Virus record (IMG/VR): IMGVR_UViG_3300046522_000173
Span: 20,274 to 84,273 of that record
Strand: one strand, 5' to 3'
DNA: 64,000 bases
From: a virus
Lineage: Duplodnaviria > Heunggongvirae > Uroviricota > Caudoviricetes
The position numbers and the translations under genes are program-made. Of this stretch, positions 5,276 to 57,154 are shown piece after piece; positions within the stretch are counted from its first letter, which is position 1, and every line of letters begins with the position of its first letter. The notes beneath the pieces were generated by a model, which saw nothing but the letters and a program-made list of their open reading frames with translations, had not been told where the DNA came from and made no database searches.

Positions 5276-6250
5276 TTAAGTTATGTTAGTGTTGTTAAGT
5301 TGATTGGAGCTATCTTGCTCCTTTGTTTGTGCTGCTATTAATTCTTCGATGCGGTTGAGGGGGGAGGCTAGGTGTACGTCGTAGAAGCATTCTGTGGAGC
5401 CGTCAAAGCGTTCCTGCGGTTGCTTGTGCTGTGAGCGCAACTCTCTAAGAATCTCGGTCTCTATGGCACGAGGAATAAACCCTTCATCAAACACGTATTC
5501 TTTAAGAATATTAAAAGTCTTACCTGACTCGCGGGAGACCGATTGGCAGCGTTCTTTTGCGTCGAAATTTGTTATGCCTACTTTCACCAAATCTCGTTCC
5601 GTGAGAACGTACAACTTGCCGGGGAGGCTATTTTTATAGCCCGCAACCGCACAGTCAGGGCAACCTCTACCTGCGAGATGAGAGGATGGCTCTTGCCAAA
5701 AGAATCCGTGTTTAGTACAGTAGATTTCAACCTTCTTGTGGGTGGTCTCGTACTTTACTCGGGAGTAGTCATACCTCCCTGAGTGAACCCTGTCAGCATC
5801 TTTTATGAACTCTTCGCCGGTCTTCCTGCAATTTTGCCCGTTAATCTCGTGGGCACATTCCTTGCAAATAGTCTTACTGTGGACGTGATTGCTGACAGTC
5901 TGCTTGAACCATCCGTGCTTCTTACAGAATATGTCTATCTTGGACTCTTTATTTTTGTAACCCAAGACATCCTTGTACAGGTAAGTATCTCCATGAACAG
6001 CCCTAATTGCTTCTCTTACTTGCTCTTCAGATTTTCTCGTCTTGCTGTGCGCAGTAATCTTCCCGCACTCGGGACAGCCGCGACCCGTGAGGTGACTCCC
6101 AGGAGTAGTCAACCATGTTTTATGTATAGGGCACGAAATTAGAACTTTTTCATTTACTGCCTTATACACCACATGCTCGTAACTGTACTTGTCTCCGTGT
6201 ATCGCAACAGCTTGCGCAATAAATTCTTCAGTGGTTTTCTTCTTTGCCAT
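5276..6250 (-). CDS. T5orf172 (GIY-YIG superfamily-like) putative homing endonuclease with three N-terminal CxxH/CxxC zinc-ribbon repeats
   Basis: Three approximately 55-aa repeats (HGDKYSYEHV..C..HG.F..P..HL.G.GCP.C) followed by a C-terminal LYVL..VKVGIT....R......F...GSTECF block. Paralog of 19520..20770, inserted inside the tail gene cluster. Confidence 0.6.
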   Translation of the reverse strand: MAKKKTTEEFIAQAVAIHGDKYSYEHVVYKAVNEKVLISCPIHKTWLTTPGSHLTGRGCPECGKITAHSKTRKSEEQVREAIRAVHGDTYLYKDVLGYKNKESKIDIFCKKHGWFKQTVSNHVHSKTICKECAHEINGQNCRKTGEEFIKDADRVHSGRYDYSRVKYETTHKKVEIYCTKHGFFWQEPSSHLAGRGCPDCAVAGYKNSLPGKLYVLTERDLVKVGITNFDAKERCQSVSRESGKTFNILKEYVFDEGFIPRAIETEILRELRSQHKQPQERFDGSTECFYDVHLASPLNRIEELIAAQTKEQDSSNQLNNTNIT

Positions 6251-6926: not shown

Positions 6927-7319
6927 TCAGAGTTCCTGACGATATCTAACTCGTACAGCAGCCACCCTAAAGTTCCCATCACTCATAGCTGGGCTAACAA
7001 TCGGAGGCTGCTCTACCGAGAATGTTTGAAAGAGGCTCTTGCCAGCCACGGGGAAGAGTGCTACGATGGCACTTGTCAGCGCTTCCAACTGCTTCATCCC
7101 TCGACCTTCTGGTACGGCTACATTCACTTGGAAGGTACCGTAGACACGCTGCCTCGTAGCATCCACCGTAGCGTTGATAGCCGTGTTGGAGAGGAATAGC
7201 ACTTCCAGGAAAGGTGCATTGACAGGCTTTGTGAAAGGCACGCCCTCGTATGCTATTGGGAGAGACTCACTTGCTGCGAAGGCTGTAATCCTTGTTTCTA
7301 CTTCTTGTCTGATGTTCAT
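6927..7319 (-). CDS. tail terminator-like protein
   Basis: 130 aa, immediately upstream of the tube gene in the late operon. Confidence 0.35.
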   Translation of the reverse strand: MNIRQEVETRITAFAASESLPIAYEGVPFTKPVNAPFLEVLFLSNTAINATVDATRQRVYGTFQVNVAVPEGRGMKQLEALTSAIVALFPVAGKSLFQTFSVEQPPIVSPAMSDGNFRVAAVRVRYRQEL

Positions 7320-7762
7320 TTCAAGATGGCCTTCATAGCGTTGTACGAAACCTCAACAGGATGATAAGCTTTCCTCATACCTGTCCAAGTCCAACCTGTC
7401 TCAGGGTCTTTGCCAGCAGGCCAAGAAGCATACTCAACCCTGAACGCATAATTTAGATTGTTGGACAGAGATACAAAACCATCCTTCTTGAAGAAGGTAT
7501 TAGCACTCTTGACAATGCTGTCAATCCTAGCTAAGCTGTCACTGCCATCACTCGTGTTAGTCGTAGTAGACGTATCAAACGAGTTGACAGCAGGGAACCA
7601 GTTAGCTACGAAGTGCCCTGCAACATAAGGGCCATCGCCTACGTGCGGAGAGTTATTAACAATCTTGGTGAAGTAGGTGTGAGCTACGTTAGTAATCTTG
7701 AAGTTTACTTCGGTTTGCACTCTTGTGATATTCTTCTTCAGACTATCTAAGAAGCTTCCCAT
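7316..7762 (-). CDS. neck / tail completion-like structural protein
   Basis: 148 aa; assigned from gene order in the head-tail joining region. Confidence 0.35.
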   Translation of the reverse strand: MGSFLDSLKKNITRVQTEVNFKITNVAHTYFTKIVNNSPHVGDGPYVAGHFVANWFPAVNSFDTSTTTNTSDGSDSLARIDSIVKSANTFFKKDGFVSLSNNLNYAFRVEYASWPAGKDPETGWTWTGMRKAYHPVEVSYNAMKAILK

Positions 7763-7782
7763 GTGCTCTCCTTTAGAACAGA

Positions 7783-7811
7783 ATTATAGCATTGAAGGGG
7801 AATGTTGTCAA
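7783..7811 (-). promoter_or_regulatory. sigma70-type promoter (cgtaagaa-TTGACA-N17-TATAAT), internal to the late operon
   Basis: Perfect -35 and -10 hexamers with a 17-nt spacer on the minus strand, preceded by the recurrent CGTAAGAA element. Confidence 0.5.
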
Positions 7812-17761: not shown

Positions 17762-19177
17762 CTAGACGGTGGGGATGGGGGATTTGCCGGAGAAGACTGG
17801 GAGGGAGAATTGGGGCATTCCCTGATTCTTCATTAGGTAGTTCGCGGCATCGGCAATGCAATCTACCTGATCATTTTTTTCATTACGCCCACCAGTGAAG
17901 TATTCCAACTCCATCAGCATGTTTTCAATGAATCTGTCGTCATCCTTGTCCCTAACAATCTTAACTAAGCCAGCTTCCGCCATTGCAAAGAAAGGTTGAG
18001 CACGTTGTAGCTTGCCTGCGTGTCCGCTCACTTTAATTGTCTTAACAGAGATGCCTGCCTCAGAGAGATGGCGGACAAAGAAAAGATTTGCCGCTGCCCC
18101 GCCAGCTCCAGGGTCTTTCGGGATGAGCACAGGTATGTCGAGTCCGTCATCTCGTGCTGTCTCCACAACGTCCTTGAGAACGCCGTCTGTCAGTTTCCTG
18201 TACCTGCGCATATGCTCAATGTACAAACAACCGTCATCTGCTCCACGACTCATAAGGCAACCCGCTGTATAGTCAGGGTCCCTTGCAGAACCTGCGTGAC
18301 TGGGCTCTTCGGACGCTGCAAAATCGTAAGCACGGACCTTGCCAGTTACTCGCAGTGGTGGCCTATCAACAATCTCAACCCAGGACCTTCGGAAGAAGCT
18401 TTCCCCAGCCTCACGAGCTGTCCAGGAACCATGCAAAAATCTTAACTGATTAACATATGGCTGGGACAGGAGGTTCGCCAAGTAGCTGTTGTTTCGCGGG
18501 GGGAGTAAATACGGGTTGTCCATCACTCCGGTCGGCACAAAGCGGAAGCTCTTAGGCATGAATAGTTTATCAGCAGGAAGCTTCTTAATCTCTTCCTCAC
18601 CCATGCCACGAGCGTATATCATGTTGCGTGGCTTGCCGTGCAACTCAAAACACTCTTCTGGGGAATCTGCCCACAAGACTTGGTTCTCGATAGTTACGAA
18701 CCAACGAATCCTGTTTTCAGTCCCTGGAAGGGGTACACCGTCATCCCCTAAACTGTACTCCACCCATTTCTTCAAAAAGCTATTGATGTCAGGGTTGCAC
18801 GATAAGTACATCTGTGGGTAAATCTTGCTGTGGGCCGAACGAATACGGGATAACAAAAATAGGACCTGCTTCTCTGTCCATTTATCACCTGCCTCATCGA
18901 TCAGCACGCGGGTTAATTGGGAACCCTGCCAGGAACCTAAATCATCGTCCGAGGCGATTGCTGAGAAAGCGATGCTCGCCCCGCTGGGGAAACGCCACAC
19001 CATGGCCTGTGATTTATATTCCCCACCAAACTCTTTGTACAATTGGCTCTCATCGATCAAACCACCTTGACGCTTCAATTCCGGTGCCGTTCTACGGAAG
19101 ATCGTACAGCGGAAATGCGGATCGTTAATACCGTCTAGGTTGCGAATCAAGCAAGTCGCAGATTTGCCTCCACCTGC
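17762..19177 (-). CDS. terL: terminase large subunit, exon 2
   Basis: Walker A (AGGGKSAT), Walker B (LIDEAG) and a nuclease domain. The ORF-track start (GTG at 19198) lies inside the putative intron; the true 3' exon is proposed to begin at GCA 19177. Confidence 0.8.
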   Translation of the reverse strand, partial: AGGGKSATCLIRNLDGINDPHFRCTIFRRTAPELKRQGGLIDESQLYKEFGGEYKSQAMVWRFPSGASIAFSAIASDDDLGSWQGSQLTRVLIDEAGDKWTEKQVLFLLSRIRSAHSKIYPQMYLSCNPDINSFLKKWVEYSLGDDGVPLPGTENRIRWFVTIENQVLWADSPEECFELHGKPRNMIYARGMGEEEIKKLPADKLFMPKSFRFVPTGVMDNPYLLPPRNNSYLANLLSQPYVNQLRFLHGSWTAREAGESFFRRSWVEIVDRPPLRVTGKVRAYDFAASEEPSHAGSARDPDYTAGCLMSRGADDGCLYIEHMRRYRKLTDGVLKDVVETARDDGLDIPVLIPKDPGAGGAAANLFFVRHLSEAGISVKTIKVSGHAGKLQRAQPFFAMAEAGLVKIVRDKDDDRFIENMLMELEYFTGGRNEKNDQVDCIADAANYLMKNQGMPQFSLPVFSGKSPIPTV

Positions 19178-19424
19178 CATTAGAGGCTTGTTCAGCACAG
19201 GTCGTTAGTCTGTGCCCGCTTATCAAGCTGCCCCGTATCGCTACGGGGGTCAGGCTATATCTTCCACTACAAAGTAGCTGAACCCTGTTTCCACTCACTT
19301 GAGCGTACTTCCTTTCGGAATAGCCGTCACACGTTCCCTTTCGGGCTTCGCTCGGTGTTGTCTACTAGAGATATTCACCGAATTAAGGGTTTGTTTTTAA
19401 GGCGGAGGCACAGGTATCTCAACC
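19178..19424 (-). other. putative ORF-less group I intron (about 245 nt) interrupting terL at the P-loop
   Basis: Stops in all frames. The minus strand has an R-like element GGTTCAGCTAC (plus 19274-19283) and an S-like element GAAGATATAGCCTGAC (plus 19250-19263) that can form P7 (GCTA/TAGC). Two GAAA tetraloop hairpins lie at plus 19310-19319 and 19336-19345. The 5' exon ends in U and the intron ends in G. Confidence 0.55.
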
Positions 19425-19523
19425 ACCGCCAAGCAAAATAACATCCGTAGTTTTATCTGTAAGGATAAGGCGTTGTTTCTCGCTTGCTGGCCCGTAGACC
19501 TTTTTTTGTTTCTTATCTGTCAT
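19425..19523 (-). CDS. terL: terminase large subunit, exon 1 (34-codon ORF MTDKKQKKVYGPASEKQRLILTDKTTDVILLGGG ending in TGA)
   Basis: ATGA-coupled to the upstream T5orf172 gene stop. Ends as the P-loop glycines begin; splicing to exon 2 gives LLGGAGGGKSAT. Confidence 0.55.
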
Positions 19524-20770
19524 AACTCCCCTATTAAACAGTCGAGCATCTCAATAAGGTTGTAACTCGACAGGTCAACGAAGCACTCCGTGTATCCATC
19601 GAATTTAATATCAGGGTTTCTGTACTCAGCCCTCAACATCCTCAGAAATGCACTCTCGACATAAGCACACTGCGTGCCATGCATCTTGTACTCTTTCGCC
19701 ACAACAAACTTATTGTCAGTTGTTCTGTTGATTTCCTTGGCGCGGTGTGTAGCACTTTTGTTGGTAATTCCGATTTTTGTGACGCCAGATGCCTTGAGCA
19801 CGTATAACGTCCCACCTTTACTGGTATTAAACCCTGCCTTGTTGCACAATGAACAACCCTGTCCCGTAAGGTGCTTCTCGGGTGTCTGCTTAAAACTTTT
19901 CCCGCAAACTCCACACGAGATTGAAATCTTAGTGTTTCGGTTCTTGTAATCGCTGAGCGTGTAAACATACCTTTCACCATGAATCACCTTGGCTTGGTCT
20001 ACAAACAGAGAAGCATCTAGTGTCCTTGCTCTGGCTCCTGCATCAATGGCGCATTTCCTACAACCAGACGGCGCGGCGCCATGTGCAGAGTTTACATGGT
20101 TGTCGAACGAAATTTCAAACACTCCGTGGTCGTAACACCGAACCTTTACCTTATTCTTAACACCCTTGAACTCCACAAGGCTGTAGTCGTAGCGGGTTCC
20201 GTGAACAGCTTTCATTGCAGCTACTGCCTCTTCTTGTGTGTAGCTGCAACTCCCCTTTAGAAATCTACCACTCTTAAGTGCCGCAATCCCAACATTTTTA
20301 ACAGTGCCGTCTTCAAACTCAACATCAAAACGTGAGCCAAGGTGTACTGCCTTTACTGTGGCTGCAAACCCCTCGTTGTTCTTGTAAGCTGTTCCAATTT
20401 CCACTCGTTCACACTCATCCCTGTCTGATGCTGTACCGACCAGAAGTTGCGAACTGTTTGTCCACTTTTGCTTGCCGCTGGCAGCAAACTGCACTAGAAT
20501 TCTCTTGGCGTGCACGTACTCCACAACTTTACAAATCCCTGAGTGGCTGGTTTGGAACTCTTGGCCGACTTGTATCCCATACAGCCGAATAGAGTCATCT
20601 TTAAGTATGCCACTCTTAACTTGTGAGGAATTCGTCCTCTTAACACTGGCTGTGTCTAAGAACCTTACAACGATGTTTGTACTATTGGTGTACTCAAGGA
20701 TTTCGATGTTGCCGTAATTTTGTGTTGGGAGTATATCTCCGACTCGAATTGATGGAGCGTTGATGCCCAT
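19520..20770 (-). CDS. T5orf172 (GIY-YIG superfamily-like) putative free-standing homing endonuclease, paralog of 5276..6250
   Basis: N-terminal Zn-ribbon repeats (HGTRYDYSLVEF..C..HGVFEISF..H..GAAPSGCRKC) and a C-terminal LYVLKASGVTKIGIT..R..E..FDGYTECF block, immediately upstream of terL exon 1. Confidence 0.6.
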   Translation of the reverse strand: MGINAPSIRVGDILPTQNYGNIEILEYTNSTNIVVRFLDTASVKRTNSSQVKSGILKDDSIRLYGIQVGQEFQTSHSGICKVVEYVHAKRILVQFAASGKQKWTNSSQLLVGTASDRDECERVEIGTAYKNNEGFAATVKAVHLGSRFDVEFEDGTVKNVGIAALKSGRFLKGSCSYTQEEAVAAMKAVHGTRYDYSLVEFKGVKNKVKVRCYDHGVFEISFDNHVNSAHGAAPSGCRKCAIDAGARARTLDASLFVDQAKVIHGERYVYTLSDYKNRNTKISISCGVCGKSFKQTPEKHLTGQGCSLCNKAGFNTSKGGTLYVLKASGVTKIGITNKSATHRAKEINRTTDNKFVVAKEYKMHGTQCAYVESAFLRMLRAEYRNPDIKFDGYTECFVDLSSYNLIEMLDCLIGEL

Positions 20771-21921
20771 TGACGTTCCTCTCTACTAGGTTAAATGGTG
20801 TGGCTAGGCGAAGAGTAGAGCTTCGCCAGGAGGATCAATCCGTTCGCCACGTTGAACTTATAACAAACAACAAAAAGCCTGCCAGCATCCCTGCCGACAA
20901 GCCTCATAAGAATTGGTGACGCACCAGCACTCAACCATCCGTACGTCTTAGTGACCTTAGAGCCACCCTCTCCGCTCTTGCCGCTTTCGCAGCTATTGCT
21001 CAATGGAGCTTGAGTCCCGCGAGCAAATTCTATGTACGAATGACTAGGACTATCCTAGAACTTTGGGCTTGTCACCTTGCGTCTAATTCCGCCACCATTC
21101 GTTTGTTACGAGTGTTTGTGTCAGCCCTCGTCGGCTTTTGTGACCTCGACAGTAGTGCTACAACCAGTAAGCTTGTCTTACAACCAGTGAATTCTGTTCG
21201 GCCTGGAATTCCACCAGACTCATTAGCCTCTTCTCGAAGCCTCGTCAGCAGCAACGCTAACAATCCGCAGGTAGGGGATTCTTTAAAATTCCTATTGACA
21301 GCATCTGCTGCCCTTGCTATGATTCTTCACATGAACTGCTAAGACGTACTTGGCCCTGTCTTAGAAAACTTAACCTGCAACAATAAAGGAATAGCGATTG
21401 TTTGCCGGGGGAATTTCTTTGAGAGAAACTTCTGCCTAATGAAGAACAGTTCTGCCAGAGGCCGCCGAAAAGCGGCTTTTGTGCTGGTGCTCTCTGTTGG
21501 ATTTTAACCAACGCGGGATTTCTCCTCCGGGTTACAAAGCCGGTGCAATCGGACGGACTATGCGAAGAGAGCAGATACCCAAACCGTGCAAACAATGCAG
21601 AGGGTTTGGGCGTATGTTTTCAAGGCGGCTCAACTCGTACAAGCGTCAGAGAGGAGGGGCAATGGCCCTGTAGAGGAACCGCCTTGAAAACAGCCTCGTA
21701 AGAAGCTGTGTGCCAATTTTTGGACAGGCGTGGCTTGCCTGAAAGTTGGTGCAGGAGAATCCCCGCTAGAGCTATGTCGTAGTCTTCTTATAGCGGAAAA
21801 TTCAGGTAGGTCTCATGGACCCTGCTCTCCCGTCACTCTCCCTTCCCACAACACCGCAGTCTTCTGCGCACTACCAACAAAAGAATTGTAGCAGAACTTG
21901 TGCTTCTTGTCAACTCTTACG
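20771..21921 (-). other. 1.15-kb ORF-poor structured region (candidate leader, ncRNA or packaging-site region)
   Basis: Only short low-complexity ORFs. Contains a 13-bp long-range inverted repeat GTTTTCAAGGCGG/CCGCCTTGAAAAC (21616-21628 and 21679-21691), a 9-bp stem ACCCAAACC/GGTTTGGGT, tandem 10-bp direct repeats TACAACCAGT at 21159-21168 and 21179-21188, and a plus-strand terminator-like hairpin GCCGC-cgaaaa-GCGGC-TTTT at about 21461-21480. Confidence 0.4.
21884..21912 (-). promoter_or_regulatory. consensus sigma70 promoter cgtaagag-TTGACA-N17-TACAAT firing into the ORF-poor region and the endonuclease/terL genes
   Basis: -35 TTGACA and -10 TACAAT with a 17-nt spacer on the minus strand, directly after the terS-like stop codon. 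Confidence 0.55.
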
Positions 21922-22437: not shown

Positions 22438-22638
22438 ATGATGAAGCTTTACCTAGTAGTGTCAATCTCACCCAGTGGTGCGAAAGGGCTTGTGGGCCAT
22501 TACCCATACGAGGACAGTCCTGAGTGGCGTTCTGAAGTGTACGATACGGAGGAGGATGCCATTATACAAGCCGAGTTTATGTCACATAAATTCTCTGCTC
22601 GTGACATGCGTTACGAAGTGCGTGAGATTGAAATTTAA
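22438..22638 (+). CDS. hypothetical protein (66 aa)
   Basis: Strong RBS AAGGAGG 6 nt before ATG. Confidence 0.5.
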   Translation: MMKLYLVVSISPSGAKGLVGHYPYEDSPEWRSEVYDTEEDAIIQAEFMSHKFSARDMRYEVREIEI

Positions 22639-22648
22639 GGAGAAGCCC

Positions 22649-22822
22649 ATGCTACAAAACGTCAAAATGTACTTCCGCGATGCCGGGAAGCTCGCCTGCA
22701 TCAGCATTGACAGTGCAGACACCTACCGCGATGCCATCTGGGCCGTCCGCAACCGAGTGCTTCTAGAGGAGAACCCGTGGTTTGAAGTGAAAGCCCCTGT
22801 CATGGCGATTGTACAAAAATGA
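22649..22822 (+). CDS. hypothetical protein (57 aa; internal start of ORF 22475..22822)
   Basis: ATG preceded by AAGGAGAAG; the longer ORF would overlap the previous gene. Confidence 0.4.
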   Translation: MLQNVKMYFRDAGKLACISIDSADTYRDAIWAVRNRVLLEENPWFEVKAPVMAIVQK

Positions 22823-22995
22823 AAGAACTTATGAACATCATCGAAGACTACGAACGCCAGGAACGCAACTTGGCAGACATGGACGACAGCCGCTTTGCAG
22901 AAATCTACCTGGAGGACATCACGCCGGCCCGTAAAGAGAACAAGCAGAAGATTCGTAAAATGAAGAAGGAGAGCAAATATGACCGAAATTATTGA
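22819..22995 (+). CDS. hypothetical protein (58 aa, MKELMNIIEDYERQERNLADMDDSRF..)
   Basis: ATGA overlap with the previous stop; open frame to TGA at 22993; not in the ORF track (under 60 aa). Confidence 0.4.
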   Translation: MKELMNIIEDYERQERNLADMDDSRFAEIYLEDITPARKENKQKIRKMKKESKYDRNY

Positions 22996-23332
22996 ACAAC
23001 ACACCGAAACCCGCAACGAAGAAACCAAGATTCTTCGCACGCCTAACTTTTACACTGTTGTTCTTGAAATCGAACGACACGTGCTCCTTGGATGGCAAGT
23101 TGAAAAAATTATCACTCCCCCAAACTTTGATTTCTTCTTGTACGAGGTGTGCTTTGTCAAGAATGCCCACACACTAGCTAACGTCAAGGCTAGTGCAGAC
23201 GCTGCTAACGAAGGCAAGGAAGTGATTACGAAGGAGAAGCGCCAGGAGAATATGGCTAAGGCCCGTAACACTCGTATGGCTAAGATTGCTGCTGAAAGGC
23301 TGGCTGCGGAGGGTGGTGGAGATGAAAGTTAA
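22979..23332 (+). CDS. hypothetical protein (117 aa)
   Basis: ORF track entry; tight gene packing. Confidence 0.5.
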   Translation: MTEIIEQHTETRNEETKILRTPNFYTVVLEIERHVLLGWQVEKIITPPNFDFFLYEVCFVKNAHTLANVKASADAANEGKEVITKEKRQENMAKARNTRMAKIAAERLAAEGGGDES

Positions 23333-23543
23333 GTTTGCCAACACTGACGTAGACCTCTGGAGACTTCGTGTAGGTGAAGTTGTCGTGCTTATGTACGATG
23401 ACGGTGTGATGGACCCTCTGCACATCAAAAGCTTCCACAACCGTAGCATTCTTAACAAGCACGAAATGACGATTATCGCTGGTGACGAGGAAGGAGATTA
23501 CGAGTTTAAGCCAGAATGGCTTACTTGGGTTGGTAGCCACTAA
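23322..23543 (+). CDS. hypothetical protein (73 aa; ATG inside ORF 23286..23543)
   Basis: GGAGGG 9 nt upstream of ATG. Confidence 0.45.
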   Translation: MKVKFANTDVDLWRLRVGEVVVLMYDDGVMDPLHIKSFHNRSILNKHEMTIIAGDEEGDYEFKPEWLTWVGSH

Positions 23544-23545
23544 CA

Positions 23546-23574
23546 TTGACAGAATGCATCTCAGATGCTACATT
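23546..23574 (+). promoter_or_regulatory. sigma70-type promoter TTGACA-N17-TACATT with palindrome GCATCtcaGATGC in the spacer
   Basis: Hexamers plus a possible operator palindrome, upstream of the PhoH-like gene. Confidence 0.45.
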
Positions 23575-23631
23575 GGGGTGTCTAGCTTTAACCTGCAAGG
23601 CATTCCATTAACATTTTTACGAGGATTCTTA

Positions 23632-24417
23632 ATGTCCAATAAGGCCCGTCGCCATGAACGTCTCTCCCGCAGGAAGCGAGCAGAGGAACCTGTTGCAGAA
23701 TTACCAACAGAAAGTATTGTACAGCCTACACAAACCCGTCTTATGAAGCTTGAGCCTGCGAATCCTCGGCAAAAGCAGCTTCTAGCAATGTTACGAGAGG
23801 GACGTGCTGCCTTGTTTGCACAAGGATCGTCTGGGACCGGGAAAAGTTTGATTGCTGCCTACCGGGCGGCAGAACTCCTACGCGAGAAGAAGATTGAGAA
23901 AGTTTACCTCGTGCGTGCGAACGTTTCTACGGGTAAATCATCAGGTAGTCTGCCTGGAACGTTAGAGGAAAAGCTTATGCCGCTATTCAAGCAGACGCTG
24001 ACGCATCTCGGTAAGTTCATGGGGCAAGGGTTCCTCACCTACTGCATGAACAACAAGGTTATTGAGTTCCAGAGCGTCGAGTACATCCGTGGTATGAGTA
24101 TCGAGAATGCATTCGTCATTATTGAAGAGTCGCAGAACCTGCTCGCACACGAGCTAGAGGCAATTCTCACACGGATTGGAGAAGGCTCACAGTTCGTATT
24201 TACCGGCGACCAGAAGCAAAATGACCTTCGGGGTAACAGTGGGCTCGTGCAAACCATCGGCCTCATTGAACGGATGCTGGACGAGCAACCAGACTACCTC
24301 GCTGACGACGATATCGATTGCTTGGAACAGAACGTTGGTGTCGTAACGTTCTTGCCTACAGATGTTGTCCGGTCAGGCCTGTGCCGCGCGTTCGTGAAAA
24401 TGTACTATCATAATTAA
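23632..24417 (+). CDS. PhoH-like ATPase
   Basis: Walker A (GSSGTGKS), a PhoH-family conserved block (IIEESQN) and a GDQKQNDL block; RBS GAGGA. Confidence 0.75.
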   Translation: MSNKARRHERLSRRKRAEEPVAELPTESIVQPTQTRLMKLEPANPRQKQLLAMLREGRAALFAQGSSGTGKSLIAAYRAAELLREKKIEKVYLVRANVSTGKSSGSLPGTLEEKLMPLFKQTLTHLGKFMGQGFLTYCMNNKVIEFQSVEYIRGMSIENAFVIIEESQNLLAHELEAILTRIGEGSQFVFTGDQKQNDLRGNSGLVQTIGLIERMLDEQPDYLADDDIDCLEQNVGVVTFLPTDVVRSGLCRAFVKMYYHN

Positions 24418-24427
24418 GGAGAAACCG

Positions 24428-25081
24428 ATGTCAGACATTCTTAAACTTCTCAAACGAGAAATCGAGCCATTCAAAGTGGTGGCAGCACCTCTAAACCAAG
24501 TGTACCAAGTGACGATTGATGATGGCTTTGAAGACGTTGCACAGTTCGCAGAACTAGTTGACTATCTCAACAATGCCGTAGAGGGCGACATCGCACACAT
24601 CAAGATTTCTACCCCTGGCGGTGCACTGCATAGCATCATTCCTCTGATTGAGGCCATGCGCAACACTGATGCTCACATTGCAATGCACGTGGAGTCAGAC
24701 ACTGCTAGCGCCGGAACGATTCTCATGATGCTTGCTGATGAGGTGTATATTAACCCGTACACTTCCATCATGATCCACTCGGCATCCTATGGCTACTACA
24801 ACCACTCTGGCAATATGGAAGCACATGTGAACCACAGCACTGTTGCGATTAAGAAGCTTATTGGGGAGATTTATAGTGGCTTCTTAACCCCAGACGAAAT
24901 CTTGCGCGTCCAAGACGGCCTAGAAGTGTACCTCACTGACGAAGACTGCTACGACCGCTTCAAGCGCCGTAACGACATCCGTATGAAGCAAATCGCAGAC
25001 GCCAACAAGCCTCCCAAGAAACCCCGCAAGACTGCTAAGAAGCTGCCCGTAGAAGCTCCTACCGAAGACATGCCGCTGTAA
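24428..25081 (+). CDS. ClpP-like (S14 family) serine protease homolog encoded in the early region
   Basis: ClpP-like core (ISTPGGALHSIIPLIEAMRN, TASAGTILMMLADEVYINPYTSIMIHSASYG) and a basic C-terminal tail; distinct from the S49 prohead protease. Confidence 0.55.
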   Translation: MSDILKLLKREIEPFKVVAAPLNQVYQVTIDDGFEDVAQFAELVDYLNNAVEGDIAHIKISTPGGALHSIIPLIEAMRNTDAHIAMHVESDTASAGTILMMLADEVYINPYTSIMIHSASYGYYNHSGNMEAHVNHSTVAIKKLIGEIYSGFLTPDEILRVQDGLEVYLTDEDCYDRFKRRNDIRMKQIADANKPPKKPRKTAKKLPVEAPTEDMPL

Positions 25082-25127
25082 GAATCGCCCTGGCTTCGGC
25101 TGGGGCATTTTTATTTGTAGAAAGCGC

Positions 25128-25451
25128 TTGCATTCTTACGGGACATGTCCTATGATGAACTCACTAACCCCTCAGGAGACTAACATGACGCACCACAGTG
25201 CTACCACCTTTCAAGCCACTCGCTTCAACCCCAATCGTGAATTCTGTGGAGGCGAACCTGCTTCCGAGATGCACCGTCAACGCCAATTTGAAATCTGCCG
25301 AGCAATCGACCTCATCAGCCTGGGCAACGTACTAGAAGCAATGGTGGAGAAGGGCCACATGAAGGAAAGCCAAGCAAGGCTGTTCAAAGCGCAAGCAGCA
25401 ATCTTGCAAGCGCATTTGCTCACTGAGAATAACAGGTCGTTGAACTTTTAA
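25128..25451 (+). CDS. hypothetical protein (possible start MTHHSATTF at about 25186 behind AGGAG)
   Basis: ORF track entry. Confidence 0.45.
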   Translation: MHSYGTCPMMNSLTPQETNMTHHSATTFQATRFNPNREFCGGEPASEMHRQRQFEICRAIDLISLGNVLEAMVEKGHMKESQARLFKAQAAILQAHLLTENNRSLNF

Positions 25452-25461
25452 AGGAAACCAA

Positions 25462-25746
25462 ATGGAAGAGTATAAAATTTCAGATGTGCTCGCTGATGCA
25501 ACTCACCCTGCACACGAAGCAACAACAAAGATGATGGATGATCTACGCTCAGGTAAGATTAGTATGTGCGCTTGTATGGGTCCAGGTTACGGCGAGCCTT
25601 ACTGTCCTTGTGAAATGAGCCGAAGAGGTCTTGACGAGCAGATGAAGAATAACCCGCTTCGCATCGAGGCGAATAAGCGCTCGGCGGAAATGTGGAAGAA
25701 GTTTATGGACGAAGGTGGATTTGGTCAATTCGAGAGTGAAGAATGA
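25462..25746 (+). CDS. hypothetical Cys-rich protein (CACMGPGYGEPYCPCE)
   Basis: Good RBS; possible metal-binding motif. Confidence 0.5.
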   Translation: MEEYKISDVLADATHPAHEATTKMMDDLRSGKISMCACMGPGYGEPYCPCEMSRRGLDEQMKNNPLRIEANKRSAEMWKKFMDEGGFGQFESEE

Positions 25747-25829
25747 AAGACGCTTTCTACGGAGCTGTGCTCATGATTGTTATGCTGCTTGTTAAAGTTG
25801 GATTGATTGAAGATATGGGAGAAGAATGA
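25743..25829 (+). CDS. small hydrophobic peptide (28 aa)
   Basis: ATGA-coupled; under 60 aa so absent from the ORF track. Confidence 0.3.
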   Translation: MKDAFYGAVLMIVMLLVKVGLIEDMGEE

Positions 25830-26005
25830 TGATTTTTACTTGTATGGTCGCCACCATGGCGGCGCTGGGATTTCTACTAACACTTCTTGGTATTTGTGGA
25901 GAGGGAGATATTGGAGAAAAGACTGCTACAAAATGCTTTGAGGTGGGAGTTGCTATGCTGGTGGTGAGTTTCTTATCCTCTTTCGCTATATACGTGAGGG
26001 GATAA
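25826..26005 (+). CDS. small membrane protein (59 aa, 2 predicted TM segments)
   Basis: ATGA-coupled; translation hydrophobic. Confidence 0.4.
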   Translation: MMIFTCMVATMAALGFLLTLLGICGEGDIGEKTATKCFEVGVAMLVVSFLSSFAIYVRG

Positions 26006-26007
26006 CC

Positions 26008-26166
26008 ATGCTAGAACTTACATGTTGGATATTGTGCGGATTCGGCTTGTTTGAAATTATGTGCGGGCTTGCAAATGACAACGATTGGTCGTTCGTCAAA
26101 GGCTTCTGCCTCGTGTTCGCAGGACTGATGTTTGGGATTGCACTGAAATGCATGGCTACTTTATAG
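26008..26166 (+). CDS. small membrane protein (52 aa)
   Basis: Hydrophobic translation (MLELTCWILCGFGLFEIMCGLANDNDWSFVKGFCLVFAGLMFGIALKCMATL). Confidence 0.4.
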   Translation: MLELTCWILCGFGLFEIMCGLANDNDWSFVKGFCLVFAGLMFGIALKCMATL

Positions 26167-26228
26167 CATTCTTACTAGGCTACACACTTGGTAAAATTTT
26201 AATTTGTATTTATTGTTAAGGAGAGAAC

Positions 26229-26486
26229 ATGGAAATTTCCGTATTGCAGAGCTTGATTGATCGTACGAGTAACCAGATTGCAGAGTATGAAGCCGCCATC
26301 AAGTACGAGAAGGAACAACTGGCAGGCTGGTGTGACATGGATTACGAGCGGGTGCAACGTAAGTACACGATTCACTACTACAATCAGAAGTTGCCTAAAC
26401 TGCGTAAGATTCAGAAGGCACTGAAGAAAGAGGTTGCACAAGAACTGGCGAAAGCTGCCAAACAACGTTTCTACGACAGCATGTGA
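26229..26486 (+). CDS. hypothetical protein (85 aa)
   Basis: RBS AAGGAGAG. Confidence 0.5.
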   Translation: MEISVLQSLIDRTSNQIAEYEAAIKYEKEQLAGWCDMDYERVQRKYTIHYYNQKLPKLRKIQKALKKEVAQELAKAAKQRFYDSM

Positions 26487-26492
26487 GGGCGC

Positions 26493-26753
26493 ATGAAAAC
26501 AACTCTTAGAGGACTCCACAAACAACACGTCGAAATTGAGCTTGACGAGCGTGATGTGCTGGACAAGGCTGTTGAGATTCTTATGTGCGCCCACGCATTG
26601 CAAGCAGAGGACTGGTTGGTGGACGGGGAGAAAATCTTCCGAGATGTAGGAGGGCAAGGGTTGCTAGTGCACTATGCTGACGACACCGACAAGGCCTTAT
26701 TTGATGTTGTTGACTTTATCAAACATGTCCGCTACTACAAACTGAAGGAGTAA
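26493..26753 (+). CDS. hypothetical protein (86 aa)
   Basis: ORF track entry. Confidence 0.5.
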   Translation: MKTTLRGLHKQHVEIELDERDVLDKAVEILMCAHALQAEDWLVDGEKIFRDVGGQGLLVHYADDTDKALFDVVDFIKHVRYYKLKE

Positions 26754-26754
26754 C

Positions 26755-26916
26755 ATGACAGTCTACATCGTAACAATCCAATACCCTAGCGCGCACAAAG
26801 TGGTGGCGAGTGACTGCACATGGACTAGCAGGGTGAGTGCTGAAGCGTATAGGGAAAGCTTGGATGGTATTTATGCGGGAGTGGCTGAGGTTGTTCTGCA
26901 TGAAATTGATTTATAA
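26755..26916 (+). CDS. hypothetical protein (53 aa)
   Basis: GAAGGAG 6 nt before ATG; under 60 aa. Confidence 0.35.
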   Translation: MTVYIVTIQYPSAHKVVASDCTWTSRVSAEAYRESLDGIYAGVAEVVLHEIDL

Positions 26917-26928
26917 CAAGGAGAAAGA

Positions 26929-27921
26929 ATGATAGTGTTAAGTTTGTTTGACGGGATGTCGTGCGGGCGTATTGCCCTGGAACGTGCGGGTATCAAAGTG
27001 ACGAAGTATTTCGCCAGCGAGATTGACAAGAATGCTGTTACGGTTAGCAAGGCAAACTGGCCTGACATCGTACATATTGGGGACGTTACAAAAATCAGCT
27101 ACTCAAATGGCGTGTTGTACACAGAAACAGGTGAATATAATGTTGGGAGTATTGATCTTCTGATTGCAGGAAGCCCTTGCCAGGGGTTCTCTATGGCAGG
27201 TAAGCAATTGGCGTTTGATGACCCTAGGAGTATGCTGTACTTCAAGTTTGAAGAAATCTTGAATCAATGTAGCCCAACTTATTGGCTTCTTGAGAATGTC
27301 AAGATGAAGCAGGAGTTCAAGGATGTTATTTCTGGGCGAATTGGCGTAGAGCCGATTGCTATTAATTCCAACTTAGTGAGCGCTCAAAATCGTTACAGGC
27401 TGTACTGGACAAACATTCCAGGCGTGACCGCCCCGAAAGACAGGGGGATTACTCTTCAGGACATTCTTCAAGACATTTTTGACGACAAGTATCGAATCAA
27501 GGAAGGTCGTCTGAAGTGGCTACAGAATTTCGGGGAAGTAAAGGAAAAGGGCGGGTACGTCGCATTCAACCCGACGAAGGCAAAGTGCCTGACGGTTCGC
27601 CGCGAACCGTCTTGGAACACCACATACATTTTGCAGTGGCCTCATGGTACGAATACTGGTGGGCTACGCGCCCTTGACGGGAAGACGCCAACACTGACTA
27701 CGAGTTCTTGGGAGTTCAACAACTACCTGCTGCATAATGGCTAGGTGAGGAAGCTAACTCCTGAAGAGTGCGAAACCTTGCAAACTGTTCCTTCTGGGTA
27801 CACAAAGCACGTACCTGAAGGTCAGCGGTACAAGATGTTGGGCAATGGTTGGACAGTGGACGTGATTGCACACATCTTCCAAGGAATTGTCAATGCAGAA
27901 AAGATGAAAGAAGCTGCTTAA
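26929..27921 (+). CDS. DNA (cytosine-5)-methyltransferase interrupted by an in-frame TAG at 27742-27744 (271-aa N-terminal part plus a 59-codon C-terminal continuation in the same frame)
   Basis: Motif I LFDGMSCG, motif IV GSPCQGFS and ENV are before the TAG. Immediately after it, in frame: VRKLTPEECETLQTVPSGYT..YKMLGNGWTVDVIAHIF (motifs IX-X), then TAA at 27919-27921. Confidence 0.7.
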
Positions 27922-28003
27922 ATACACAAGGACAAGGTTCGCAACGTCCGAGAGGATTTGAGAGGAAATTGGGCTTAAACGTCAATTGAATTAAGGATGA
28001 AGT

Positions 28004-28222
28004 ATGGAATACAAGGATATGTGGCCGCATCAACAACGTGTGGTAGACGAAATGCTTGAATTGAACCACAAGATTGCTAAACTGAACGACTTTATTGGCT
28101 ATTCGCCTTTGTTTGTAAAACTAGATGGGTGCGAGCAAAGTAGGTTGCACCGACAGATTAAGTTCATGTGCGAGTACAGTGATGTGCTGCAAGAGCGTAT
28201 TGATGCCTTCAAGGTGCTCTGA
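28004..28222 (+). CDS. hypothetical protein (72 aa)
   Basis: RBS AAGGATGAAG. Confidence 0.5.
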   Translation: MEYKDMWPHQQRVVDEMLELNHKIAKLNDFIGYSPLFVKLDGCEQSRLHRQIKFMCEYSDVLQERIDAFKVL

Positions 28223-28572
28223 TGACCTTCGGACAACAAACACCAGAGCAGCGTACAGAGAACATGGAGAAGGCTCGCATTGCACGAGCAGAGCAGGCCG
28301 CGCAGAATAAGGCTAATGAACATCTTCTAAAGCTTGAGTATATGGACAGCAATCATTGGCAGGAGCTTGCAAGCAAGTACAAAGTGAGGATGCCACCTTA
28401 CAACGAGCCATGCACAGCCAAAGGTATGCGTAAGTACATGAAGCGTGTGGGCATTACGAATGACCAGTGGAAGGAGCATTACACGAGCATGGAGTATTTT
28501 ATGGCTAATAATCCTAGGTTCACGTTGCTCGCGTGTGCTGGGCTTATGTTGGAGATGAGGGAGGGGTTGTGA
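28222..28572 (+). CDS. hypothetical protein (116 aa)
   Basis: ORF track entry. Confidence 0.5.
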   Translation: MTFGQQTPEQRTENMEKARIARAEQAAQNKANEHLLKLEYMDSNHWQELASKYKVRMPPYNEPCTAKGMRKYMKRVGITNDQWKEHYTSMEYFMANNPRFTLLACAGLMLEMREGL

Positions 28573-28793
28573 GATTCCACAATGAAGCGCTGCACAGGTT
28601 TATGGAAGAAGCCAAAGCGCATCATGAGCAACGAGAGGCGGCGAAAGCCACGCCCACATACAAGTTCGAGTGCCACGAGTACGTGACGTTGGAATATCAC
28701 GAGGAAGTGGTTGCGAAGCTTAAGCAGGAGATTACTAAGGCTTACAGCCAAGGTAAGAGTGATGGTGGTCCAGAATATTCTTGGAGGCTGTGA
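28533..28793 (+). CDS. hypothetical protein (possible GTG start at about 28569 behind GGGAGGGG)
   Basis: ORF track entry. Confidence 0.45.
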   Translation: MCWAYVGDEGGVVRFHNEALHRFMEEAKAHHEQREAAKATPTYKFECHEYVTLEYHEEVVAKLKQEITKAYSQGKSDGGPEYSWRL

Positions 28794-28993
28794 TGATTAA
28801 ACGACAATGTGTTATTACGTACGAGAAGTGGGTTGATGGGCATGCAGAACGCTGGGGCACTCAAACATTCACCACAAAGAGTTGGTGTGCCCCAGATGCT
28901 AGTAAGCTTGTTACGGATTCACAGGTGTTGGCTACGGAGATGAGCGGTGGAGAGCCTAATCAAATTCGTATTACAGGAGTGTTCAAGTTATGA
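28793..28993 (+). CDS. hypothetical protein (66 aa; ATG inside ORF 28781..28993)
   Basis: GGAGG 6 nt before ATG; ATGA coupling. Confidence 0.4.
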   Translation: MIKRQCVITYEKWVDGHAERWGTQTFTTKSWCAPDASKLVTDSQVLATEMSGGEPNQIRITGVFKL

Positions 28994-29250
28994 CAGACAT
29001 CAAACGTTACAGCCCTGTAGTCGCCTACGGCAACAGTTATAACGATGTTGCTGCGGAGATGGATGAGCGGGAGGATGGTGAGTGGGTTAGGTGGGGTGAG
29101 TTTGAGAAGCTGAAGGCTGAGAACAAGGAATTGGCGGGTAAGCTCACTTGGTGGGAATACAAGGCGAGAGACTTGCACGCCAATATTGTTGAGTGGAAGA
29201 CTAGGGCTAACAAGTTTGAGTCTGCGCTGATTGATAAGATGAGTGAGTAG
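28990..29250 (+). CDS. hypothetical coiled-coil protein (86 aa)
   Basis: ORF track entry. Confidence 0.5.
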   Translation: MTDIKRYSPVVAYGNSYNDVAAEMDEREDGEWVRWGEFEKLKAENKELAGKLTWWEYKARDLHANIVEWKTRANKFESALIDKMSE

Positions 29251-29337
29251 TGGCACGGGCCTGCTGATGAAGCTGCACATGATAGTGCGCTTTGTTGGCG
29301 GGCTTTTGTTTTGTGGAGACGTAAGAATGCGTAAGAG

Positions 29338-29366
29338 TTGACAAGATAGCTCTGCAATGCTATAAT
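29338..29366 (+). promoter_or_regulatory. consensus sigma70 promoter gcgtaagag-TTGACA-N17-TATAAT
   Basis: Perfect hexamers 30 nt upstream of the HTH gene. Confidence 0.6.
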
Positions 29367-29395
29367 TAGTACGTTAGAGATAAGAAAGGAATTGG

Positions 29396-29614
29396 ATGGC
29401 AAACGTTAAAAAATTTAGCAGGGAAGAAGCACTTGAGCTTAGGGCCAAGGGTTACTCGCACAAACAAATTTCCATCGCACTCGGCTGCTCTAAAGCTTGG
29501 GTGGCGAAGGAGCTTATGGGTGTGGAGAAAGGTGAAGGGAACGAGGTAGATGGCACGAAGGTGCAGGCTATTGCAATCCTGGAGGAAGCGCTGGCGAAAG
29601 TGCGGTCACTATGA
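29396..29614 (+). CDS. small HTH DNA-binding protein (candidate transcription regulator)
   Basis: Helix-turn-helix signature (SHKQISIALGCSKAWVAKEL). Confidence 0.5.
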   Translation: MANVKKFSREEALELRAKGYSHKQISIALGCSKAWVAKELMGVEKGEGNEVDGTKVQAIAILEEALAKVRSL

Positions 29615-30036
29615 AAACTAATTATGCAGAAATCCTCGGGGAAGAACTGCTGAAGAAGATGGAGACAAGGTACAAAGGAAAGATCGCAAGTACAAGGGGT
29701 AGGGTTGACAAGGCTGGAAATCCGATTGAGATGAGGTTATCTTTTGACGAATGGCTCACTATTTGGATGGACTCGGGTAAGATTGACAGTATGGGTTCTG
29801 GTCGCGGTGGTTATGTACTCTGTAGGGTGGGTGATCTAGGGCACTACGAGGTAGGGAACGTTTTTGTAGCTTCGGGCCTTGACAACGTGTTGGACGCTTA
29901 CGAGGGGCTAGATGAGATGGCAAAGAACATCAATGAAATCTGCCTGCGGACAGGGTACAAAAGAAGCGCAGTAAAGGGTCTGATAAAGCGGGGGCTTATT
30001 TCAATAGAGAGCGATGGTTCGGTTACAGTACATTAA
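29611..30036 (+). CDS. hypothetical protein (141 aa)
   Basis: ORF track entry. Confidence 0.45.
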   Translation: MKTNYAEILGEELLKKMETRYKGKIASTRGRVDKAGNPIEMRLSFDEWLTIWMDSGKIDSMGSGRGGYVLCRVGDLGHYEVGNVFVASGLDNVLDAYEGLDEMAKNINEICLRTGYKRSAVKGLIKRGLISIESDGSVTVH

Positions 30037-30194: not shown

Positions 30195-30890
30195 TCATTG
30201 AATTGGATGCTGAGTCGGTTGCTTCCACCGCTGCTGAATGTTCGACACAGATTTCGCAGTCCAGTCCTTGCCCCTCTGAGTCTTGTAGCTGCGAGAGTTG
30301 AGCGTAGTCGCAATCTTATTCAAGGAAAGCCCGCACGTAACCATGCTCTCAATGATGGGCCTCATCTCTGCTGCATAAATATTCGCCATGCGTTTGAGCG
30401 TGACGCGGCCCTTCTCACGGGCTTCAGTCATATCCGAGTTGTGCCCAGGCTTCCAGTGCGGCTCACGCTTCTTTTTTGCAGCAAGAGCAGCTTTGGTGCG
30501 AGCACCGATAGCAGCCCTCTCGGCCTCGCTAATGACGCAATAAATATGCAGCATAAATGGGGTGATGTTCTCCCCAAGCTCCGCGATGATGAACTTCAGG
30601 TCGGTATCCATCAGATTCATAATGAAGGATGCTTTCCTGGAGAGTCGGTCTAGCTTGGAGCAGACGAGAGTGGCCTTACGCTTCTTGCAAAGCTCAATGG
30701 CTCTCTTGAGTTCAGGGCGGTAGTCCAAGCCATACTTGCCGCTGACAGCCTCCTCAAAAATCTCAATGATTTGATAGCCGTTAGCTTGTGCAAAACGCTC
30801 GATTTCTTCACGCTGCGCCTCTGCACCATTGCGGGCCACTTGCTGTTTTTCAGTCGAGATTCGAATGTAGGCTACAAGAAGTTTGCTCAC
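30195..30890 (-). CDS. small serine recombinase (resolvase/invertase family), GTG start
   Basis: N-terminal catalytic block (YIRISTEKQ) and SKLDRLSR, with a C-terminal HTH; a single minus-strand gene between plus-strand units. Confidence 0.75.
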   Translation of the reverse strand: MSKLLVAYIRISTEKQQVARNGAEAQREEIERFAQANGYQIIEIFEEAVSGKYGLDYRPELKRAIELCKKRKATLVCSKLDRLSRKASFIMNLMDTDLKFIIAELGENITPFMLHIYCVISEAERAAIGARTKAALAAKKKREPHWKPGHNSDMTEAREKGRVTLKRMANIYAAEMRPIIESMVTCGLSLNKIATTLNSRSYKTQRGKDWTAKSVSNIQQRWKQPTQHPIQ

Positions 30891-55326: not shown

Positions 55327-55490
55327 GCATTGCTGTCCACATAATTGACACGGAGGAGCAGATTGTTGTGAGCCATCTCGATTGCGTGGTTGCGCGGTTT
55401 GACAGGAGTTGGCTGCGGAGTGAGGCTGAGTTTGTGTGCGGCTTGGAGGATTTGTTGCGGGGGTTGGGGTTTGTGGTGAGTTTGGATTAG
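55323..55490 (+). CDS. hypothetical small protein (55 aa)
   Basis: ATGA-coupled ORF under 60 aa. Confidence 0.3.
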   Translation: MSIAVHIIDTEEQIVVSHLDCVVARFDRSWLRSEAEFVCGLEDLLRGLGFVVSLD

Positions 55491-55501
55491 GGGTTATTCA
55501 A

Positions 55502-57154
55502 ATGGGTTATTGGAAAAAACAAGATTCATACGAAGAGGGAACACGAGTGACTGAATTTAAAAAAGAGAGTATCAAGGACGTTCTTGAGTACCCAGTTCTG
55601 GCTATCCCTGAACGCGGTATTCGCCAGGAAACTGCGGAATTGTTCGGCATTAGGACGGCCGTATCCGAAATCGATGGCCGCACGCCTATTGCTCATTACT
55701 TCCCGTATTACAACCAAAAGAAAGAGCTGTGCGGCTTCAAGCGCCGCGACATCACCTTACCGAAAGAAGATAAGCACCACTTTAGCGTGGTCGGGCAGGT
55801 TAATATTGGCTGTTTGATGTTCGGCCAGCAGGTAGCCGAGACAATTCCGCGAAAGCACACTAAGATATACGTCCTCGAAGGTGAATGGGAAGTTCCCAGC
55901 TTACATCAGGCTATGTGCGACGATGTGGCAGGCACACAGTATGCAACCCTAAAGCCGTTCGTAGTTAGTGTGGGACTTGGCACTAAAAACAGTGTCGAGA
56001 ACATCCTGCACAACAAAGACTTCATAACATCATTCACCGATGCTGTTGTCCTCGGATTCGATAACGACGAGTGCACTCCTGCTGAAAAGCAGAAGGGTAT
56101 GATGCGTGGCAAAGAAGCCCGTGAGGCAGTTGCTAATGCACTGATGGGTGCACCACTGTTCTACCTGCCCTATGGTGTGGACAAGAAAGACCCGTCAGAC
56201 TACCTACAAGCAGGGCAGTCCAAGGAGTTGGCAAAACTGGCATCGTTCGGGGCTAAACCGTACGTAGCGGAGAAAATCCTTAAAGCTGGCGATGTTACGT
56301 TTGATGAGATTGTTACACAGAGACCGCTCGGCATTATGGTCCCTGAGTTTCCGAAGCTGATGAATCAAATAAAAGGTTTTAGAACAAGGGAGCTGACCCT
56401 GCTCTGTGCCCCTTCAAATGTTGGCAAAAGCACAATATCTGCTATCTTCGCTAACGCTTTTATGTCCGCTGGTGAACGTGTGGGTATGATCTACCTAGAG
56501 GAGCGTCCAGTAGAAACACTTCAGCGCATGATTGCTTCACAGCTTAAAGTCAACTATCTCGAATTTAAGAATAATCCTACGAGTGTTGCAACCCGTGAGG
56601 ATATCGAGCGTGTGTACCGGGACATCGTGGACAACAACAAAGTTGTGATGCTTGACCACTTCGGCTCTCTGCCGCTGTCAGAGTTCATGAGTAAAGTGAA
56701 GCACATGCATTTTGTTGAGGGCTGTCGTTATATTGTTGTCGATCATATCACAGTCTTGACCAGCCCAGACGTTGGAGATGAGCGCAAGGAACTTGACTTG
56801 ACGATGACTACTCTGGCTGCATTCTGCGCAGCAAACGACATTTGTGTGATAATCATTAGCCACATCAATAGGACGAACGCGGATGCGTTCAAACCACCGA
56901 AAGGCAAGGAAGATCAACCGTTTTGGGTGCGTGTTACGAAGGAAAGTCTGCGTGGGTCTAGCAGTCTTGAAGCGCTTAGCTGGAATATCTTGGCCCTGGA
57001 GCCTGAAATTCTCCCGGACAGGTCTCGCGGGCGTTGCCGTGTTGTAACCTTGAAGAACCGTACGTGGTCTTATTTGGGTTGTGCCGACACATTCAAACTG
57101 GATAACGAGACTTGGGAGGTTGTTACTGAAGATGACGAGGTTCATGAGTTTTAA
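55502..57154 (+). CDS. DNA primase/helicase (TOPRIM primase domain plus DnaB-like helicase, T7 gp4-like)
   Basis: TOPRIM (YVLEGEWEV, VLGFDNDE); helicase Walker A (CAPSNVGKST); start at the internal ATG of ORF 55436..57154. Confidence 0.75.
   Translation: MGYWKKQDSYEEGTRVTEFKKESIKDVLEYPVLAIPERGIRQETAELFGIRTAVSEIDGRTPIAHYFPYYNQKKELCGFKRRDITLPKEDKHHFSVVGQVNIGCLMFGQQVAETIPRKHTKIYVLEGEWEVPSLHQAMCDDVAGTQYATLKPFVVSVGLGTKNSVENILHNKDFITSFTDAVVLGFDNDECTPAEKQKGMMRGKEAREAVANALMGAPLFYLPYGVDKKDPSDYLQAGQSKELAKLASFGAKPYVAEKILKAGDVTFDEIVTQRPLGIMVPEFPKLMNQIKGFRTRELTLLCAPSNVGKSTISAIFANAFMSAGERVGMIYLEERPVETLQRMIASQLKVNYLEFKNNPTSVATREDIERVYRDIVDNNKVVMLDHFGSLPLSEFMSKVKHMHFVEGCRYIVVDHITVLTSPDVGDERKELDLTMTTLAAFCAANDICVIIISHINRTNADAFKPPKGKEDQPFWVRVTKESLRGSSSLEALSWNILALEPEILPDRSRGRCRVVTLKNRTWSYLGCADTFKLDNETWEVVTEDDEVHEF

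Follow-up and report, generated by a model that had tools for sequence, protein, structure and literature searches.

RESULTS

Genome setting of the methyltransferase gene

The window, that is, the whole stretch of 64,000 nt analyzed here, is part of the genome of a tailed phage. The minus strand carries a structural and packaging module, with genes for the large terminase (positions 17762 to 19198), a major capsid protein (PF03864), the tail terminator, the tail tube proteins, and a tape-measure protein of 2,011 amino acids (aa) that runs off the left end of the window. An early block on the plus strand (22475 to 30036) contains the genes for PhoH and a ClpP-like protease, many small genes, and the C5 cytosine methyltransferase gene studied here. 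At the junction between this block and a minus-strand block lies the gene for a 231-aa serine recombinase of the invertase or resolvase type (30195 to 30890, minus strand). The minus-strand block also encodes a UvrD-type helicase, and the right part of the window carries, on the plus strand, the genes for DnaB (55436 to 57154) and for an 815-aa open reading frame (ORF; 60061 to 62508). The Pfam calls for the neighboring genes include no restriction-enzyme partner of the methyltransferase. The only tRNA gene in the window, according to both ARAGORN and Rfam, encodes a tRNA-Thr with the anticodon UGU (21485 to 21572, minus strand). This tRNA is 85 to 88 nt long, with a variable arm of 11 to 12 nt and an encoded CCA end, and its score with the Rfam tRNA model was 45.9 bits; such a long variable arm is unusual for a tRNA-Thr.

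Stand-alone nuclease-like or homing-type genes are scattered among the essential genes. An HNH endonuclease gene (19520 to 20770, minus strand) is found beside the large terminase gene, a gene for a DUF723 protein (5276 to 6250, minus strand) inside the tail module, and an ORF with a putative HNH-like motif, recognized by eye, directly after the 815-aa ORF (62530 to 63138, plus strand). The serine recombinase has a counterpart of the same length and 36% identity in a related locus, L002 (8574 to 9269), where the gene is on the other strand relative to the shared flanks. An invertible segment at the recombinase gene was considered and set aside, as only short and weak inverted repeats were present nearby.

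A consensus promoter of the window, TTGACA-17 nt-TATAAT (29338 to 29366), has been conserved in L002. Downstream of it, L002 has a gene for a 229-aa methylase of the D12 class (Dam-like; 7048 to 7800). This gene is absent from the window, in which the same promoter directly precedes a 72-aa gene (29396 to 29614). GATC is strongly underrepresented in the whole window, with an observed/expected ratio of 0.45; CCGG (0.68) and GGCC (0.74) are depleted as well, and CCCGGG does not occur at all. Judged by composition, the depletion of GATC, CCGG, and GGCC looks like restriction-site avoidance in a phage without a Dam-like gene and with a disrupted C5 methylase, and it would fit a lineage relying on site avoidance rather than on methylation.

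The methyltransferase gene is interrupted by a single amber codon

The methyltransferase gene is located on the plus strand. It opens with an ATG at position 26929, with the Shine-Dalgarno sequence AAGGAG, as read from the sequence, 5 nt upstream (26918 to 26923), and its reading frame is stopped by a TAG at 27742 to 27744. Translation of positions 26929 to 27921 gave 271 residues, one stop, and 58 further residues in the same frame, ending at a TAA (27919 to 27921). The letters around the stop are CAT AAT GGC TAG GTG AGG AAG CTA ACT CCT GAA GAG, so that the amber codon, codon 272, stands in the context GGC TAG GTG. The truncated ORF (26929 to 27744) encodes a product of 271 aa with a computed mass of 30.5 kDa, compared with 37.1 kDa for the full-length protein. 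The same-frame continuation (27745 to 27921) starts with the GTG, has no Shine-Dalgarno sequence, and would give a 6.5-kDa peptide if made.

All six motifs that were checked are present in the canonical order between 26947 and 27876. The N piece contains motifs I to VIII and the target-recognition region, with motif I (F.G.G) at 26947 to 26967, motif IV (PCQ) at 27169 to 27192, motif VI (ENV) at 27292 to 27300, and motif VIII (Q.R.R) at 27385 to 27399. Beyond the TAG lie motif IX (R.LT..E; 27748 to 27792) and motif X (GN..; 27841 to 27876). The profile PF00145 matched residues 3 to 126 of the N piece at profile positions 3 to 113 (E = 5e-29, 102.1 bits) and residues 2 to 49 of the C piece at profile positions 276 to 323 (E = 8e-9, 35.7 bits). 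The two pieces thus match the profile in the right order, and the joined reading scored 142.9 bits against a cutoff of 22. Such a two-piece methyltransferase pattern is far beyond chance. The methyltransferase gene is therefore a disrupted member of the PF00145 C5 methyltransferases; it does not encode a single unbroken polypeptide with all ten motifs, as 118 of the 119 nearest homologues do.

These results confirmed, by translation and by the PF00145 matches on both pieces, the initial annotation of this gene as a methyltransferase interrupted by an amber codon with motifs IX and X downstream. The continuation that it reported beyond the TAG is there as well, but its length is 58 codons; the figure of 59 given earlier includes the stop codon.

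The stop is found in no homologue

The search for homologues covered 5.8 billion protein clusters, and the best 120 matches were taken. The 271-residue product is on record exactly, as P0002, and this sequence of the window itself is the sole 271-residue protein among the 120 matches listed. The nearest homologue, P0001, has 330 residues and aligns without gaps to the joined reading with 87% amino acid identity; its codon 272 is GTT (Val). The other 118 of the best 120 matches are 283 to 562 residues long. At least 40 residues follow the stop column in every one of the 119 homologues except a 283-aa protein on a contig of only 1,099 bp. Therefore, the comparison with homologous phages suggested in the initial annotation revealed no natural gene end at this column. 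The column itself is occupied by Leu in 47 homologues, Met in 26, Val in 15, Ile in 8, Phe in 6, Arg in 4, and Gln in 3, with eight rarer residues in the remainder. These 15 residue types among 119 homologues agree with the earlier description of the position as tolerant of substitution. The TAG is one base away from TTG, a codon for Leu, the commonest residue of the column.

The TAG is the sole lesion of the gene, and the residues invariant in the family are all retained on both sides of it. In comparison with the P0001 gene, pN was 0.079 for codons 1 to 271 and 0.053 for codons 273 to 317, while synonymous sites were saturated (pS of 0.72 to 0.83). The downstream piece has thus not decayed, which suggests either that the stop is recent relative to the divergence from the phage carrying P0001 or that the piece is still used.

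Closer relatives were sought at the DNA and peptide levels. Megablast searches against the INPHARED phages, with the gene and with 20 kb around it, found no near-identical DNA. Searches for the exact sequence surrounding the codon, in which the stop itself was left open as NNN, gave no match among IMG/VR and JGI metagenome contigs, the source contig included. A peptide-pattern search of GTDB genomes yielded no close relative, and the same kind of search in IMG/VR yielded relatives at 48 to 62% identity only. The best tblastn matches, about 50% identical, came from Roseobacter and Pelagibacter phages. The members from Pelagibacter phage HTVC309P (L005, 1501 to 2937) and from uvMED (L006, 1501 to 2934) are single ORFs of about 478 aa, in which an insertion of about 150 residues divides the tblastn match in two.

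Stops do occur elsewhere in this methyltransferase family. Vibrio phage ICP1_2006_E (MH310934.1; L007, 1001 to 1999) carries a member with about 44% identity and the C-terminal block RKLTP.ECERLQTVP...GWTVDVI, in which codon 78, inside motif IV, has changed from TGG to TGA. In the sister isolate ICP1_2006_D, this codon is TGG and the gene is intact; the TGA is the sole difference between the two isolates in the 91-nt stretch aligned around codon 78. The ICP1_2006_E member is annotated as two pieces, ORF229.2 and ORF229.1. This case resembles the window in having a single-base in-frame stop in an otherwise undamaged frame, while the gene is kept intact in sister isolates of ICP1_2006_E. It differs in the position of the stop (codon 78 in motif IV, compared with codon 272 before motif IX in the window) and in that the sister shows the ancestral codon to be TGG. 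We further examined 85 related loci from IMG/VR and GTDB genomes. Only one internal in-frame stop was found among them, at codon 239, in the target-recognition region, of a member from an Acutalibacteraceae metagenome-assembled genome (L060, 2001 to 3008), together with two frame breaks. The stops in this family are thus sporadic and fall at different positions; therefore, they look like random knockouts, unlike a programmed site.

Predicted effect of the truncation on the enzyme

In the AlphaFold model of P0001 (mean pLDDT of 77.5), residue 272 lies in a loop that leads from a helix (residues 261 to 269) to a strand (residues 273 to 275). According to this model, a product of 271 residues would lack the strand from 273 to 275 and the helices from 278 to 284, 297 to 304, and 310 to 329. 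The closest solved structures are those of the catalytic domain of DNMT3A/3B, both by sequence (best E = 2e-21) and by fold (best Foldseek matches of the P0001 model, with E = 5e-19 and TM scores of 0.6 to 0.7). Identity to these proteins is only about 25%; the phage protein, of 330 residues, has its own longer target-recognition insert and does not contain the eukaryotic regulatory domains. In the structures of M.HhaI and M.HaeIII, the motif X helix completes the large domain that binds AdoMet. A protein ending at residue 271 should almost certainly be inactive, because it would be devoid of both motif IX and the motif X helix of the AdoMet-binding domain; therefore, the phage DNA would not be methylated by this methyltransferase.

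The amber codon is present in two assemblies

The 271-residue product is recorded from two sources, the 84,273-bp JGI contig and the Logan assembly of SRR26076530. Four Logan contigs from this run are identical to the window across 34,183 compared bases, the TAG included, and the TAG lies inside an unbroken Logan contig of 20 kb, on which the gene caller also predicted the 271-aa ORF. Because this identity is perfect, both assemblies are almost certainly derived from the same reads. Since a second assembler arrived at the identical base, an assembler error is unlikely, and a read error or a minority variant is still compatible with the data. The amber stop is thus real in the assembled sequence, unique to one genome, and the only lesion of the gene.

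DISCUSSION

Alternative explanations for the amber codon

Four accounts of this codon can be given, three of which were listed in the initial annotation. The stop could be a sequencing or assembly artifact, or a minority variant that entered the consensus, in which case the real population would have a sense codon such as TTG and an intact gene. Only one sample has yielded the phage (one member sequence and one contig). Rightward of 55 kb, the Logan assembly breaks up into pieces (3.0 and 3.2 kb), for which low depth or microdiversity is a possible reason, and low-coverage contigs often contain broken copies of genes from this methyltransferase family, for example, L010 (2.77x) and L011 (1.8x). 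The agreement of the JGI and Logan assemblies at all 34,183 compared bases, however, makes an error of this kind unlikely even though the same reads were apparently used, and the location of the TAG within a continuous 20-kb Logan contig speaks in the same direction. In addition, the change is a substitution, not an indel as is typical of assembly or long-read errors, and no other gene of the window has a comparable lesion. We consequently consider an artifact unlikely.

If the stop is genuine, it could still be functional, either through a suppressor tRNA encoded by the remaining part, about 15 kb, of the phage contig or by the host, or through reinitiation at the TAG-GTG sequence giving a two-piece enzyme, but on the whole we find a functional role very doubtful. 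The switch envisaged in the initial annotation, amber suppression or programmed read-through at a tolerant position, would make the level of the methyltransferase dependent on suppressor status. The downstream piece is intact, as such a mechanism would require, and the 15 residues found in the stop column include Leu, Gln, Ser, Trp, and Lys, which are those inserted by common amber suppressors. Phages that read TAG as Gln with suppressor tRNAs of their own are described in bioRxiv 10.1101/2021.08.26.457843 and PMC9523058, and phAss-1, as presented in PMC10607447, carries in-frame TAGs in 41 ORFs. TAG-recoded phages (code 15: crAss-like, Lak, and others) share with the window an in-frame TAG in a gene whose downstream part is coding. 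In the accounts given of them, however, many in-frame TAGs go together with a suppressor tRNA, whereas the window has one such TAG and uses TAG codons elsewhere as normal stops. No amber-suppressor tRNA with the anticodon CUA was found by ARAGORN and Rfam in the 64-kb window, whose sole tRNA is the tRNA-Thr(UGU), and a Logan contig that extends 5.1 kb past the left end of the window has no tRNA in this extension. TAG terminates 3 of the 30 called genes near the locus; the large terminase gene and three further long ORFs end with it too, and extensions by read-through past these TAG gene ends would span only 3 to 31 codons. When codon usage was scored on both sides of all 192 stops that have 40 or more open codons in either direction, coding-like sequence was found on both sides at seven of them. 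Six of these are TAA or TGA, and the stop in the methyltransferase gene, an early gene, is the only TAG. Its 64 kb contain a single TAG of this kind as well as intact ORFs of up to 1,344 aa, so the window does not have the appearance of a genome in which TAG is recoded throughout. RNA structure gives no indication of stimulated read-through, as the folding of the 119 nt that begin with the TAG is no better than that of shuffled sequences (z = -0.73), and the stop site is conserved in no relative. A suppressor-dependent switch thus gains no positive support from these results and appears highly improbable.

The fourth account, which was not on the initial list, is that ribosomes reinitiate at the GTG (27745) abutting the TAG, and that the resulting 6.5-kDa peptide with motifs IX and X forms an active methyltransferase together with the 30.5-kDa N piece. 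The position of this GTG immediately 3' of the TAG and the undecayed state of the C piece are compatible with such a process, and in the P0001 model the break falls in the loop between the target-recognition region and motif IX. C5 methyltransferases with two natural subunits are documented, and so is fragment complementation, in M.BspRI, M.BsuRI, M.HhaI, and M.SssI (PMC3404938). As represented in that source, M.AquI and M.EcoHK31I (Karreman and de Waard 1990; Lee et al. 1995) are natural enzymes of this type, divided between motif VIII and the C-terminal motifs, with a small piece that carries motif IX, plus motif X in M.AquI. Their subunits, both needed for activity, are encoded by dedicated, separately initiated genes, whereas the C piece of the window has no ribosome-binding site. 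The break in the window also comes later than theirs, right where the variable region ends; M.SssI had no or barely detectable activity when it was broken in the distal part of this region, adjacent to motif IX (PMC3404938). The missing Shine-Dalgarno sequence stands out locally, since a match of 4 nt or more precedes 27 of the 30 genes called around the locus, and ATG is the start codon of 28 of them. Furthermore, the presence of the GTG is explained simply by the Val that it encodes, which is nearly invariant (117 of the 119 homologues), and no relative is split at the stop column. When 1.84 billion representatives were scanned exhaustively by HMMER with the 58-residue piece, none of the best 150 matches started at the GTG residue; the 14 short matches that were read start 9 to 29 residues upstream of the position equivalent to VRKL. 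A stand-alone family of motif IX-X proteins was also considered and rejected, as two short matches checked in their contigs were fragments of broken genes, at 2.77x and 1.8x coverage. Neither separate start signals for the second piece nor a split conserved among relatives, as expected for an enzyme of the M.AquI type, is thus seen here, and a two-piece enzyme seems very unlikely to us.

A nonsense mutation as the probable origin of the stop

We think it likely that the amber codon arose recently by a nonsense mutation of one base in an orphan methyltransferase gene of this phage, and that it represents an ordinary loss-of-function allele. The initial annotation had listed this possibility, and it is supported by the uniqueness of the stop, its distance of one base from a Leu codon, the undecayed C piece, and the stops found elsewhere in the family. 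According to this explanation, an orphan gene for a DNMT3-like C5 methyltransferase, located among the early genes of a tailed phage, would have been hit at codon 272, most simply by a change from TTG (Leu) to TAG. Translation would then halt at the TAG and give a 30.5-kDa protein instead of the 37.1-kDa enzyme. The mutation would be recent because the downstream piece is without decay. The ancestral codon can only be inferred, because the P0001 gene, the nearest relative, is just 75% identical in DNA. A change from TTG to TAG is a transversion; one from CAG to TAG would be a transition, but Gln is found in only 3 of the 119 homologues. The TAG stands in the sequence CTAGG (27741 to 27745), which would arise if the inner 5-methylcytosine of a CCAGG site (Dcm-type) were deaminated. 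Such a self-inflicted origin was considered but set aside as at most a speculative idea, because the observed/expected ratios of CCWGG (0.90) and CTAGG (0.97) are unbiased and Gln is rare in the column. Two points weigh against a simple knockout. The 58 downstream codons are perfectly preserved and a GTG follows right after the TAG, which would fit continued use too, and the phage is found in one sample only, a single snapshot that, unlike a population or time series, cannot show the allele to be a dead end.

Implications

Were the stop used after all, DNA methylation, and hence evasion of host restriction, would be tied to suppressor status. If the two-piece enzyme were true, it would provide a new natural split point for C5 methyltransferases, directly before motif IX, a position not known from any natural enzyme of this class, which would be of interest to split-enzyme engineering. 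The nonsense mutation that we favor would be a known kind of event, another phage losing an orphan methyltransferase by point mutation. In annotation, the gene should be marked as disrupted and not as a methylase of 271 residues. For the phage, the loss may reflect neutral drift or may have been selected, for example, as an escape from a modification-dependent nuclease.
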